64,000 nucleotides of DNA from Tricharina praecox (lineage: Eukaryota), in assembly GCF_024521635.1 (NCBI RefSeq), contig NW_026250413.1, positions 248,001 through 312,000 on the forward strand, read 5' to 3'. Shown here in pieces: positions 25,870-55,984 of this stretch. Every line of letters begins with the position of its first letter. Within the stretch, counting starts at the first letter, position 1. The position numbers and the translations under genes were made by a program. Below the pieces are notes generated by a model. That model ran no database searches. It was not told where the DNA came from and saw only the letters and a list, made by a program, of their open reading frames with translations.

Positions 25870-27130
25870 TTAACAGCAACCTCCAGCCGCTCCCTGCTGG
25901 ACGTCCCGACCGTTGTTGACCGTGACCGCGGGTTTGTTGTTGACAGCAGTGGATCCCATGCGCTCCTACAGGAAAATGGGTTAGCTTCGCGGTCCAACGA
26001 CAAGTTGGCCCAGCCAGACAAGGTAGAGGATGGCAACAAACCTTGATCTGTCGGGCCATCGTCAAGAAGGCCTGCTCGACGTTGGTGGCGTTCTTTGCCG
26101 AGGTCTCCAAGAATGGGATTCCAAGACTGTCGGCAAATTCCTATCCGGCGCGAGCAGCTGATTAGCACAGGAAATCTTTTGCGCGACCGCCGAGTCATGG
26201 GGACTGTGGGGCAAAGTACCTTTGCGACAGCATAGTCGACCACCTTCTTGTCCGCCATATCACTCTTGTTGCCCACGAGGAGCTTGTTCACACCTTCCGT
26301 CGCGTAGCGGTCGATCTCCTGCAACCACTGCTTGACGTTGTTGAAGGAGTCTGGTAAACGAGTTAGCGAGCGTCGTCGTCATCGTAAACGGGAGCCCATA
26401 CCCATGTCCGTCACATCATACACGACACAGATGCCATGCGCCCCTATCGAATTTCGTCAGCCATTCAAGTCATATGACAGCCTTCCGTGAGTCAACACCG
26501 AGCGCCAAGTACCTCTGTAGTAGGAACTGGTGATGGTCCGGAACCGCTCCTGGCCAGCTGTATCCCACTGCACAATATTGTCAGCCGCCCGTGTGGCCTC
26601 AAAGCGGATCGTGGCGGATCCGGGGGCGAAGGGGAGCACGTACGATCTGAAGCTTCACAGTCTTGCCATCGAGCTCGATCGTGCGGATTTTCTGGTTATC
26701 AGGTCAGCATTCCATACGTATTGTGTCAGTCGAACGCATGGACGTACAAAGTCGACTCCGATAGTCGAGATGTAGCTCTCGGTGTAGGTGTCATCTGCGA
26801 ATCTGAGCAAAAGACAGGACTTTCCGACACCAGAGTCTCCGATGAGGAGGAGCTTGAAAAGGTAGTCGTATCTGGAGTTTCCGGCATCGTCAGCATCATC
26901 GCAGGGGCCAGAGAACGACACAGCGACCGAGGATCGACAGCACGAATCCGAGTCGAGCGTGTGCAGAAACGAGGGGAGTAATTGGAAGGGCGGTTGAACT
27001 CTGTACGCTAATCAGCAAACCGATGTGGCCGAGGGAAGTGGTGATGGCGAAGGCGGGGGAGGGGAGGTTTAGAGGGGAGGATAAGGCGGCGATAGAGGGG
27101 GTAGGAAACATACCACTCGGGGGTAACCAT
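25870..27130 (-). CDS. YPT1: Rab1/Ypt1 GTPase, 8 coding exons; first coding intron is a twin intron
   Basis: [72 protein letters not shown]. Confidence 0.97.
26872..27116 (-). other. Putative [D3,4] stwintron: internal intron 27113-27001 nested in the donor of an external intron (27116-27114 plus 27000-26872)
   Basis: GA|GTG[GTATGT..GCTGAT..TACAG]AGT..GCTGAC..CCAG|ATACGAC. Removing the internal intron creates GTGAGT. Confidence 0.82.
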
Positions 27131-27180
27131 TGTTGCGGTAGGATGTTCTTAGTGGTGTTGTTTGGGGAGGGTGATGAAAA

Positions 27181-27461
27181 CTGTTGTTGGATGGAGCAAG
27201 GTCGGTCAGTCAGTGAAGTTGGCTTTAGTTGCGGTGGGCAAGAGGGTGGTGGTGGTGGAAGTGGTGTTGGTAGAGGTGGTGTTGTTGTTATTGAGTTGGC
27301 GGGTTTGAAGCTGAAGGAAGAGGGAGGGAGGGAAGGATCCGAAGCAAGCAAGCGGCAAGCACAGGGGAAGCAAGCAAGCAAAGCAAAGCAAAGCAAGCGA
27401 AGGGGTAGCCACTCAGCCACACCGGGGCGACAGCGACAAGAGAAGACAAAGAAGTACGTAC
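27181..27461 (-). other. Probable 5'-UTR intron of YPT1
   Basis: GTACGT donor at 27461, ACTGAC branch, CAG acceptor at 27181 (50 nt upstream of the ATG). Confidence 0.55.
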
Positions 27462-28420
27462 AGTTCGCCGAAAGCTCTTATTAGGCGGTGACAGTAGCTG
27501 GAGACGGTGGTGGAGAAGTGGTATTCGCGGCTGTCGGGCGTTGAAGCGATGAACGTGGTTGGTGGGTTTGGTGGTGGTGGTTTTGCGGTGGTGGTGGTTT
27601 TGCGGTGGTGGAGGAAGAGAAGGGGAGGAGCGTGAATGGCTTTGCTTTTCGGTGAGTTGACTCCAAGGGTTCTTTTGAGTGATAGTATGTCTGGCGTTCT
27701 TAGCCGCGAGGAGAGGAAAGCGAGCTGCCTTATGTCGGATGGCGGATAGTGAGAGAGCCACAGATGGAAAGCGAGAGAAGAAGACGGCCATTCTATGGCA
27801 GATGTCCTCGTCCTATCCACAGCCTTTAGAGATTCTGTCACATGGACAATCCTTCCGTCTCCACTGATCCATCCGAGATGTTTGCGATCATCATCACCCG
27901 GAAAAGTGCGGTAACTATGCGTTTCACATTTCAGCTATGATGGGCGGACTCCCTCGACTACGATGCGGCTATCCCGCTCAAACAGCTCTTTGATTCAGCC
28001 CGCCGGTCCTGGTTATCATCGACGATATCATAGCTTGCAGACAGCAGGCCAATCCGATTGCTGGTATACTTATGCGTAGAAAGAGCTATGCGCGTGCCGC
28101 ACAAAGTCGTGTGGAGGCTTGAAGCATTCGGCCCCCGAGTCTAGCTAAGGACATGCCATCCACCACCCTCTCTCGTCCTTATATCGTCCTGATATATCCA
28201 TCCCATCTTTCTTCAAAACGGAAAGGTTTTTGCTTCTTCCTGGACCTTGCAGGCGACGCCGCCCCAACTTCGGTAGAGTGCCGACTGTTAACTTTGTCGC
28301 TCTTGCGTCTTTCGTCGTCGACCTCCTCCTCCTCCTCCCCCTCCCTCGTCGTCACTTCTTGACTTCTGCAACCAACACCATCAACACCACCCCCCACCAC
28401 CACCACGACCCCGCGAGCCC

Positions 28421-51515: not shown

Positions 51516-54500
51516 ATGAACGAGGACGACTGGGAAGACTCCGCTAAAGATCCTTCGTCGACCCTCCCATCATCATCATCATCCGCCGCCGCAGCATCAG
51601 CTTCCGTCAGACCACCCACCGATTCCATATATCCAGTACAAGCTCCGTACGGTGATCTTCAGGTCCAGGGTCTCACACCACCGCCCGACGAGTTCGGCTT
51701 TGACGCAATCCTGAGAGACTGTCAGTTCCCCACACAGTTCAACCTTCCGGAGCCCCCAACGCCGCCTCGGACGGAAGCTGTCTCCTCGCCTTCGCGTTCG
51801 TCACATTCCGGGGGATCCTCACCGTCCGACGAGCCCGCGTCACCCGATAGTGATGCTGTGATGGGCGATGATTTAGGCCCAATTGTGTGTGATACTAATG
51901 CTTGCCGCTTCCGGCCTCCCTCCCTCCACCCCCCCCGTATTGTATCTGTTGCTGACGCTCGGTCGCGCGAATAGGGCTCGGGTTTCCACAACGGTATTTT
52001 CGACATGTCCTCGGGCGGGCCCGGCAGGCATGGCCAGCCGCCTCTAGTTGTCGACTCGAGCACTGACATCGACGTCGATTATAACAACCTCCTGCAATAC
52101 TTCGATTTTACCAGCGCAGCAAGCTCGCCGAAGCCAAATCCCAGCGCTCTAAACATGCAACGACAGCTGCCCCAGCAGTACCCCGGTCAGAACCAGTTCA
52201 ATCCCATGAGCTTTCCGCAGCCGAGTAATGGACCGATGCACCGAGCGGCGGGGGGAAAGAGGCCGAGGGACGAGGAGGAAGAGGTGGATAACTTGGGTTA
52301 CGATGACGACGACAGCTACGGTGCTTCCCCGACACACGTCAAGAAGGAATACAACCCGGAGATTCGACATGGAGGTTTTGGGCATGGTGCGGTGGAGTTT
52401 GGATCGCGGACGTCAGTTGGCACTCAGGGCTTCGACTTTTCCTCGTTCATGGACACTTCGTCATTTCCAACTGCGCCTATAGAACCTTTGCAACCGGCCG
52501 TTCAGATGCCCCGGAATGGCGGTGGAGCTGATTTCAACTACCAATTGATGGTCGACTTCCCCAAGCACACGAAATCATCGGGACCAGCAGGCTTTGTGGA
52601 CCCACAAGTCAAATCCAGAGTCGAAACGCAGATCTCGGTACGGTTCATCATGTCGCCAGCACCCGAAGGCGTGTCGAAACTGCGCCTTCCGAGACATGCA
52701 ATCTCCAAGATCAAATACATCGAAGACGGCCACCCCGCGAATCGTCCCGACACTTTGGAGCTCCAGGCGACGTTGGTGTGTGCCAGCGCGATGGGAGTGC
52801 CGGACCAGCTCGAGCGAGCACTGTACGAGGCGAGGGGAGATCCCGTGCCCAAATGGATCACAAAGCTCCAACACGACAAGATCGAGGCGCAAAAGAAGCG
52901 CATTGCGGATGCAGCCTCGAACAGGAGCAAGGATGATGGGGACATGTCGGGCTCGAGCTCGGGAGGCAGGGAAGGAACGGTGGCGAGGAAGGACAAGGAG
53001 ATTGACTACGACAAGTCGGTCTTTGGTGCGCCGGTTCAGATCTGCGAGCAGTGCATGAACAGGGAAAGGAAGCGTGCCAGCAGGAAAAAGAATAAGAAGC
53101 CCGAAGAGGAGGAGAAGTGGGCCCAGGACGAGAGGAAGCGGATCATCGTCTTCAATACCAACCAGGTCCGACAGTTCGAGCAGTACCCAGGTGCGCAGAG
53201 GGCGATTGCGGCGGAAACCCAAATGAGGATATGTTGCTACTGCCGTCACCACGGAGAGAAGGATGGTTTTCAGTAAGCGGAACTCCCCCGCATTCAATGG
53301 ATCCCATGTTTCTTTAACTGACAAAAACTGCGATAGGGTGATCTTCACGCTCAAGGACCACAATGGCAATGTTGTCGCACAGACGATCAGCAGCACCATC
53401 GTCATCACAGACGATCACAAGAACACGGCTGCCACGAACGCCACGGGGCTACCGGACGGAAGCATAGCGATGCCCGCCGATCAGATGTCCCCGGTGCAAG
53501 CGCCGCCGCGGCAGATGGCAGGGTACCCGCAGCAAGCCTTCATGGTCTCGCAGACGCAGCAAGGGCAGGAGAGGTTGAGGGGCTACACTCCCCAACCGCC
53601 AAACGGAATCAACTTCCCCATGCATATGGACCAATCGCCTTCCCCTCAAACGCCGATGCGCGGTTCGCTGAGCCCTGGAGGGCATCAACCCAAGAGACGG
53701 AAGGGCAGCAAGGTGCCAACGAACCTGACCATGACTCCGTCCGAGCCCACGCAGTTCCACCGCCCTCAGTTCGACGGTGGAAACATGGCTTTCACACGCA
53801 ACCATGCAGAAGTGCCGCGCCAGCAGTGGCTAAATACCGGTCCCGTATCCCCGATAGCTCAGCCGGATGAGGCCTTCTTCGTCAACACTACGAATTGGAT
53901 GTCTCCGGTGGAAACGAACGGCAATGGCTTCGGCAGGGCGCTGGGATCCCCAGAGTTCAATAGCATCCCAACGACCCCGACCATGTTTAGCAGACATCAA
54001 CTACCTAATCAGATGATGAGCCCACAGTTCCCACATGGGATGCTAGCGCTGGAGCAGCAAATCAGGCAGGGTCAAGCACACGTGGACGAGATGCAAATCA
54101 GCGGTCCGTTCATTAGTCGTGTGGTGCCAGGCGAGGGAACCTGTCGGGGAGGAATCGAGATCACGATCTTGGGCCGCGCTTTCGCTCAAGGGTTGACCGT
54201 CATGTTCGGCGACCTGCCTGCTAACGACACGACATGTTACAGCGACAGCACCCTCCTTTGCCGCCTGCCACCGAACCCTAATGCTGGGCCCGTCGTGGTC
54301 ACCCTGAAGAACATTGAGCGGCCACACCAAGCCATCGGTGTGCCCGTCTTCACCTATGTCGACGACATCGAAAAAGAGCTGATGGCTCTCGCACTGACCG
54401 TTGTTGGCATGAAGATGAAGGGAGAGATGGGTACCAGCAAGCAGGTCGCCCTTGCCATCCTACGCGACAACGGTGTCGGAGAGGATGAGATCGAGAGCAC

Positions 54501-55984
54501 TCGCAATGGCGGCGGCAACCAGCGTGCGATGGATCTGGAGGCATTGCTCCTGACCTGCCTCGACGTCATCGACATGGACGAAAGCCCGCACCCTGCGACG
54601 TTGGGCCAGAGGAACAAGTCCGGCCAGACAATGCTTCATCTAGCATGCATGCTTGGAATGCAGAAGTTCGTGGCGGCGCTGCTCGCGCGTGGCGTCTATG
54701 TTGACAGCACCGACAAGAACGGTTACACGCCTCTGCATTTTGCTGCTCTGCACAAACGGTCGGATGTCGTTCGGCGACTGTTGATGAATCGTGCCGATGC
54801 CGGATTGCGCACCAGGGGCGGGGAGACGGCTGCCGACCTCGGAGAGTCCGACCAGATCGTCAGGGCTACTAGAAGCGTCCACCAGATTCATTCCCGCCAC
54901 CATAGTAGGAGCAGCTCGGTCTCGTCCGAAACTCGCTTCAGCAGGAGCCGCTCCGGAAGTGTGTCTTCCATCATGGCGCCTATGTCCATGGCCCGCCTTC
55001 GCAGCGTGGACGACTACTTTGCCGACAGTGACGATGATGACGAGGAGGATGATGATGACTTGTATGACTTGGATTACGACAGCAGCGAGGATGGCGAGCC
55101 GGGCTGGGCCGATCGGAGACTCAGCATCCAGGATATTCCTGTGCCCATGAAGTCCGCTCTCATGGAACATACTGCGCAGGAGAAGGTTGTCGAGATGATG
55201 CCGCCGATGGACGCTTCGTTCGGCAAGAATGCCTCGGCACCTCTCATGATCGCGTGGATGGATGCTTGGAGGGAGCAGTTGACGCAGAGCTTCCAGAACC
55301 TACAGCTGAATATTCCTGTGTTGCCAACGGCTCAGATCGACTACCAAACCATGTTGCGAGACCAAATGGCCAAACTTCAGTACCCGCAGATGCCTAGATG
55401 GGGCTTCGCACAGGACCCGGAGCGCAAGGCCGTCGACTACAAATGGTCCGAGCTATTACACCCACCGGCTGCTCCGGAATCTTCCGGGGAAATGGCTCCG
55501 CCTGCCTACGACGAGCTGTACCCCGACGGCAACGGTTCCGGTGGAGCGCCGCCGGAAAAGATCGAGCCTGTACAAGATACGCCGGTGCAAGTTGAGGCGG
55601 AATCTTCCAAACCGACTCGCACGGCGTCGCCCGAGCTTGCCATGGACCTCCGCGAAATCCACAGACAGATCACGCGTCGGGATCAGCCCCTCACCAGTGC
55701 TCAGCAGGCTCACCTCCGCAAGATGAAGCGAATCGAGAGTGATCGGCGGTTGTATTTCTTCTGGGTATGTTGCTGTCCTACCACGTGATGTTTTCAAATA
55801 CTGACTAGTCCAGATTCCGGTTTTGGTCTTCATCATCATGGCCATGGCCTACTCGCATGGCCCACAGGCGTGGACCATCTGCAAGACGGTTGCGACCTTT
55901 GTTCACCAAGCAGTCAACGAACCACAGGTAGTCAGGGAACGACTGGGACTGACGGTGGGGCGGGCTGTTGGTGTCCCTGGTTAG
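51516..55984 (+). CDS. MGA2: Spt23/Mga2 membrane-tethered transcription factor; exons 51516-51884, 51975-53272, 53337-55764, 55814-55984
   Basis: KSRVETQI, C..C.NRERKRA, MRICCYCRHHGEKDGF, IPT/TIG domain (VVPGEG..GGIEITILG), ankyrin repeats (GQTMLHLAC, GYTPLHFAA), PPAY motif and DRRLYFFWIPVL transmembrane tail. Confidence 0.93.

Follow-up and report, generated by a model that had tools for sequence, protein, structure and literature searches.

Introduction

Spliceosomal twin introns (stwintrons) provide the clearest natural evidence for splice-site pairing across introns in filamentous fungi and serve as models of intron gain and loss. In animals, long introns can be removed stepwise by recursive splicing, in which a donor is rebuilt at the exon end after joining to an internal site. 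Tandem donors of the GYNGYN type carry two GT dinucleotides three bases apart at the 5' splice site and produce two isoforms. The stwintron types reported in the accessible parts of the literature are [D1,2], [D2,3], [D4,5], [D5,6] and [A2,3], with [D6,7] and [D7,8] added in a wider sense, and nearly all known cases are [D1,2] according to the accessible text of a 2025 stwintron paper.

Among the splits 1,2, 2,3, 4,5 and 5,6 there is a gap that a [D3,4] case would close. An earlier note on the DNA studied here proposed such a case in the Rab1 gene ypt1, of a type that it did not know to have been described. In our own search no [D3,4] stwintron was found in the accessible stwintron papers, leaving aside supplements and the two papers (2013, 2015) that opened the series, and those accessible papers made no mention of a stwintron in ypt1, or in any Rab or GTPase gene. 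Here we analyse a 64-kb stretch of DNA, referred to throughout as the window, and conclude that the 245 nt lying in the Glu5 codon of its ypt1 gene are most probably a donor-disrupted spliceosomal twin intron of type [D3,4].

Results

The ypt1 gene and its intervening sequence

The 245 nt intervening sequence is carried by the ypt1/Rab1 gene on the minus strand of the window. The exons verified by RNA encode a 202 aa product, a full-length Rab1 with P-loop, switch regions and C-terminal CC, and in a protein search the exon peptides were 98-100% identical to named Ypt1/Rab1 proteins. Matches to the exon 2 peptide were not fungus-specific, as this peptide is 100% conserved throughout eukaryotes. 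The identification as YPT1/RAB1 and the Rab1 N-terminus proposed earlier are thus both confirmed, with the product beginning MVTPEYDY. The parts of the gene discussed below are as follows.

27181 to 27461, minus strand: 5'-UTR intron of 281 nt, GTACGT...CAG; its joint 27180/27462 is found in RNA runs X1, X2 and X3
27117 to 27180, minus strand: start-codon exon of 64 nt; ATG at 27130-27128; its last two bases, GA, open codon 5 (Glu)
27114 to 27116, minus strand: GTG, putative 5' half of the split external donor; the RNA junction puts the 5' splice site directly before its first G
27001 to 27113, minus strand: putative internal intron of 113 nt; GTATGT at 27113-27108, GCTGAT at 27016-27011, CAG at 27003-27001
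26872 to 27000, minus strand: remainder of the putative external intron, 129 nt (132 with GTG); AGT at 27000-26998, GCTGAC at 26894-26889, CAG at 26874-26872
26748 to 26871, minus strand: exon 2; opens with the final A of GAA (Glu5); exon peptide 100% identical to Rab1 proteins

The intervening sequence (26872-27116) separates GA from A in the Glu5 codon. All coordinates noted earlier for the exon end, the GTG, the internal intron, the AGT and the second branch element and acceptor match the sequence. Excising the internal 113 nt joins GTG to AGT and yields the donor GTGAGT. The internal intron starts after base 3 of the external donor and has 7 nt between GCTGAT and CAG. For the external intron there is a separate branch element, GCTGAC, followed by 14 nt and the CAG ending at 26872, an acceptor verified by RNA. 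Internal donor, branch element and acceptor all fit the published pattern (GTNNGN list, DYTRAY, HAG), and the 245 nt hold a single internal candidate, meaning a branch element with HAG/WGY. A complete U2 intron is thus found inside a six-base external donor, as in the strict-sense definition of a stwintron (accessible text of PMC7138796 and PMC5639578). Internal excision is needed for the external donor to become canonical, both in the window and in the three further loci described below (L034, L042 and L005). Read before excision, the donor is GTGGTA, which has no G5 and is absent from the 24 common donors of the published pattern; GTGAGT and GTATGT are both among them. At 91 nt, the internal donor-to-branch distance is longer than the published [D1,2] model allows (25-80). 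Three ATGs occur in the 3' part of the intron (26899, 26896 and 26887), each out of frame with exon 2, in line with the earlier observation that this part has no in-frame ATG.

This layout suggests removal in two steps. In the first, GUAUGU (27113) would pair by intron definition with the nearest GCUGAU...CAG (27001), and a 113-nt lariat with G27113 linked to A27012 would be removed. With GUG and AGU joined, a canonical donor GUGAGU would stand directly after the exon, and the intermediate would carry the junction 27114^27000 (GAGTG joined to AGTTC). In the second step, GUGAGU would act with GCUGAC...CAG (26872), the 132-nt external intron would be removed via branch A26890 and GA would be joined to A. 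We infer both the order of the reactions and the existence of the intermediate from the sequence elements. Were the internal donor to be paired with the distal acceptor, the message of each of the four loci would read GAG-TRA and stop at codon 6.

Elsewhere in the window (52005-55788), two overlapping ORFs, presumably separated by an intron, make up a gene of SPT23/MGA2 type with a DNA-binding domain, IPT/TIG and ankyrin repeats. Its protein shares 99% identity with one from Tricharina praecox and the next matches are from other Pyronemataceae (Pezizomycetes), which assigns the window to that family.

RNA evidence for the mature junction

Four RNA runs (X1-X4) were searched, all as assembled contigs of older runs, a form of data that drops rare forms. 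The X1 and X2 contigs show full identity to the window but lack all seven coding introns, each at GT..AG borders, and are therefore RNA-derived. In both, 27117 is joined to 26871 (depth 6561 in X1 and 2204 in X2) with exactly 245 nt skipped, the mature junction that the earlier note had set as a check. The whole intervening sequence is thus precisely missing from mature mRNA, and the GA/A junction and the MVTPEYDY N-terminus are real. The contigs of X3 and X4 come mostly from relatives, and their loose ends at 26871 show merely a GA-ending exon of those relatives joined to the same exon 2.

The same contigs bear on whether the gene model itself is wrong, with another first exon or start codon in use. 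They fix both the exon 27180-27117 and its junctions, and the ATG at 27130 is the sole ATG of that exon and of the 140 nt upstream exon inspected, which argues against such a misreading.

The route to the mature junction is a separate matter. No contig covers 26880-27071 and no 27114/27000 joint is listed, among contigs that are unable to show transient intermediates; one-step and two-step removal are therefore indistinguishable from RNA here. In a one-step route, the 245 nt would leave directly from a weak tandem donor, GTGGTA, and the internal acceptor would be an unused decoy. The lariat would run from G27116 and then GTGGTATGT to the distal branch A26890, as a 245-nt lariat beginning GUGGUAUGU. 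In a variant of this route, U1 would perhaps bind the strong GTATGT that overlaps the weak donor three bases further downstream. The mature junction fits one-step removal equally well, as does a lack of intermediates among contigs that cannot show transient RNAs.

A mixture of the two routes, with most transcripts spliced in two steps and a fraction in one, has published parallels. Dual use is described for a [D6,7] complex intron of Lipomyces starkeyi (accessible text of PMC7138796), and occasional one-step missplicing for [D1,2] stwintrons (accessible text of PMC9024468 and PMC12403724). Those alternatives use a canonical donor, however, whereas the one-step donor of ypt1 is far from consensus. 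The sole other canonical pairing here, internal donor with distal acceptor (27114/26871), leads to the stop described above and accounts for none of the nine joints listed from the contigs of the four runs. Nor do those nine include the 242-nt skip, 3 nt different, that a GYNGYN tandem isoform would give, which as a rare isoform contigs can miss. We therefore regard mixed use as highly improbable.

Several observations concern the 5'-UTR intron, which lies upstream of the start-codon exon and outside the twin intron. Unbroken contigs run from the start-codon exon into this intron in X2 (27152-27308, depth 2231) and in X1 (27203-27310 and 27407-27491). The spliced joint 27180/27462 has a depth of 6276 in X1 and 297 in X2. 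Contigs that run into the intron suggest an alternative transcription start inside it or frequent retention. The intron also contains a GCTT/GCTTT microsatellite-like run at 27340-27420, and 27311-27406 was masked as repeat in RNA mapping. A non-canonical joint with an 87-nt skip (27154-27242, GT..AA on the plus strand, depth 261-283) is present in X1 and X2; surrounded by CCACC-type repeats, it is probably an artefact of assembly or of the repeats. Finally, the match of an X1/X2 contig to the 5' UTR stops at 27134, four bases short of the ATG, and the contig continues for more than 255 letters that are absent from the window. It could be chimeric or derive from a transcript sharing the leader.

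Donor strength within ypt1

The earlier note described GTGGTA as unlike every other donor, having neither +5G nor +6T. It does lack both, but other ypt1 donors lack one or the other. The remaining RNA-verified donors of the gene are GTACGT (three), GTACTT (two), GTATGG and GTTTGT; both GTACTT donors (introns 26444-26512 and 26140-26218) are without +5G and GTATGG is without +6T. Weak donors thus work in this fungus, a point in favour of one-step removal. Each GTACTT, however, follows an exonic AG, whereas GTGGTA is preceded by CGA and has no exonic AG to compensate. It departs at positions 4, 5 and 6 from the fungal donor consensus GURWGY, as quoted in the accessible text of stwintron papers including PMC7138796, and GTAGTA, its counterpart in two of the loci below, likewise breaks three of the six positions. 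The rebuilt donor is canonical, and this difference counts for two-step removal. Intron definition, as a principle stated in accessible parts of stwintron papers including PMC7138796, also favours the nearer, complete internal intron being spliced first.

Conservation of the split-donor layout

Related loci were sought in a metagenome scan with the fungal Ypt1 model P0165 as query, which gave 576 confirmed stretches. Eighty loci were kept with unbroken matches ranked first, so fungal loci without the layout may have dropped out. Most of the 80 are unbroken transcripts or genes of other eukaryotes. Three (L034, L042 and L005) have an acceptor directly before exon 2, i.e. an intron at GA/A, and all three have the split-donor layout of GTR, complete internal intron and WGT. 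The comparison of orthologs for a conserved GTG-GT...AG-AGT, suggested earlier, thus recovered the arrangement, in the broader form GTR...WGT, in every GA/A-intron locus among the 80 kept of 576. Such conservation of position among orthologues serves as supporting evidence in the stwintron literature. Slashes mark the borders of the candidate internal intron.

L034: GTA/GTATGT ... ACTGAC ... CAG/AGT; internal 69 nt, external 111 nt; rebuilds GTAAGT
L042: GTG/GTATGT ... ACTGAC ... CAG/AGT; internal 183 nt, external 78 nt; rebuilds GTGAGT
L005: GTA/GTACGA ... GCTAAC ... CAG/TGT; internal 99 nt, external 136 nt; rebuilds GTATGT

The donor rebuilt in L005 is canonical even though TGT takes the place of AGT as its 3' half. 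L042 has a second CAG/AGT (2349-2354), some 70 nt upstream of the site that follows ACTGAC; it has no canonical branch element before it and, if used, would likewise rebuild GTGAGT. The GTRGTA start is conserved in all four loci including the window, which is what a genuine one-step donor would also show. One-step removal does not, however, predict an internal branch element and HAG followed by WGT, which are present in all four loci at unalignable positions.

The 41 residues encoded by exon 2 are identical across the four loci, with 12-18 of the 41 third codon positions differing. The intron interiors align no better than shuffled sequences (z -1.64 to 0.2). Positional conservation of the internal acceptors was rejected as a measure: the interiors are unalignable, and MAFFT misaligned the acceptors when given the window and L034 introns. 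Four intron positions are common to L034, L042 and L005, whilst the window has three more that those loci lack, and at least two lineages are therefore involved. The C-terminal tails of Ypt1 are nearest to a Dothideomycete model in L034 (60 of 63 residues) and L042 (61 of 63) and to a Sordariomycete model in L005 (57 of 65). These tails, 63-65 residues long, place L034 and L042 weakly as Dothideomycete-like and L005 as Sordariomycete-like.

Scans of GTDB (59 loci) and IMG/VR (77 loci) gave no intron-bearing fungal locus. With types pooled over the two, the loci were Rab-like genes of prokaryotes, Asgard archaea and giant viruses, or tiny contaminant contigs. Three contigs of 271-393 nt in bacterial isolate assemblies (L082, L087 and L092) carry Rab1 fragments 62-92% identical and are most likely eukaryotic contamination.

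Public models of fungal ypt1 (P0165, P0189 and P0193, the last a cluster of 286 member sequences) are partial or have spurious residues right after MNPE(Y). The Pyricularia models P0193 and P0189 read MNPEY and then unrelated residues, which fits GAGTA followed by a GT donor; they were not counted as cases. Gene callers plausibly fail on this first intron, leaving faulty or partial N-termini.

Chance and pattern tests

For each locus the first nine and last three bases of the intervening sequence were fixed and the interior was shuffled 10000 times keeping dinucleotides. A match was a DYTRAY 4-40 nt upstream of HAG/WGY with both parts at least 42 nt long. Any candidate at all appeared in 90 shuffles for the window, 505 for L034, 597 for L042 and 298 for L005, whilst each of the four real sequences has exactly one. 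The chance per locus is thus 0.9-6%, with a product over the four loci of about 8e-7. Such rarity counts against a decoy acceptor, and together with the donor comparison it leads us to consider one-step removal unlikely.

We also adapted the published [D1,2] search pattern to [D3,4]. It matched once in the window, both strands considered, at the ypt1 site, and somewhere in 25 of 200 simulated 64-kb windows. The rarity thus lies in the exact coincidence with a verified intron and not in the motif itself. Applied strictly to the four loci, the adapted pattern matched the window only. L034 is missed as its best external branch element is the non-canonical GCTCAC, L042 as its internal intron length and its 24-nt branch-to-acceptor spacing are over range, and L005 as its external part is too long. 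These misses count against a perfectly canonical picture.

The 25 simulated windows, and the many introns scanned in the initial reading, are what could be said for an accidental resemblance. Recurrence of the layout in three of three independent loci makes chance very unlikely, and the unalignable introns argue against the loci being near-identical relatives. Taken with the RNA evidence on the first exon and start codon, the idea of accidental signals or a wrong gene model is scarcely conceivable.

Discussion

Our results favour a [D3,4] stwintron in ypt1. What is observed directly is the set of sequence elements, the exact position of the mature junction and the recurrence of the layout in three other fungi, and two-step splicing is the reading to which sequence and conservation point. 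The layout probably originated within an old phase-2 intron and was retained in several classes of Pezizomycotina, and the stwintron is likely to be old and widespread in filamentous ascomycetes. Whether it is ancient, in the sense of predating the split of Pezizomycetes from other filamentous ascomycetes within this essential single-copy gene, we judge to be evenly balanced. If so, it would rank with the oldest and most widely distributed twin introns and offer a natural model of intron definition, and correct Rab1 synthesis in much of the fungal kingdom would need obligatory two-step splicing. As ypt1 is essential, single-copy and extremely conserved, and the layout recurs in divergent fungi, the origin and losses of the stwintron could be followed across the subphylum.

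The described system nearest to ypt1 is the [D4,5] stwintron of a reticulon-like gene in Lipomyces lipofer (accessible text of PMC7138796). In both, a U2 intron lies inside a six-base donor, the stwintron comes first among the gene's intervening sequences and its two parts are similar in size. The Lipomyces donor is rebuilt as GUGA/GU, with its split shifted by one base in the 3' direction to between bases 4 and 5. Its intermediate was demonstrated by RT-PCR, whereas that of ypt1 is predicted from sequence and conservation. According to the same text, the [D4,5] stwintron is restricted to a few Lipomyces species; the ypt1 layout, by contrast, is found across fungi of differing intron complement.

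The [D2,3] stwintron of bioDA and the [D5,6] stwintron of rtnA in Pezizomycotina resemble ypt1 in keeping their position across whole classes, as given in the accessible parts of PMC5639578 and PMC6616335. They too are in conserved single-copy genes of filamentous ascomycetes and are thought to have been born within an older standard intron. They differ in being split between bases 2 and 3 or 5 and 6, in the genes that carry them and in having been experimentally validated. The [D1,2] stwintrons of Xylariales (accessible text of PMC9024468 and PMC12403724) share the two-step logic, the grammar of signals and the possibility of missplicing from internal donor to distal acceptor. Such missplicing leaves one G and a frameshift in Xylariales, whereas in ypt1 it would leave GTR and an in-frame stop. 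Many of the Xylariales copies are young, similar in sequence and spread within genomes, in contrast to the four ypt1 interiors, which are unalignable.

With tandem GYNGYN donors the ypt1 site shares two GTs three bases apart; those donors give two isoforms in one step, whereas one was seen here. In comparison with recursive splicing in animals, the first ypt1 reaction would be wholly intronic.
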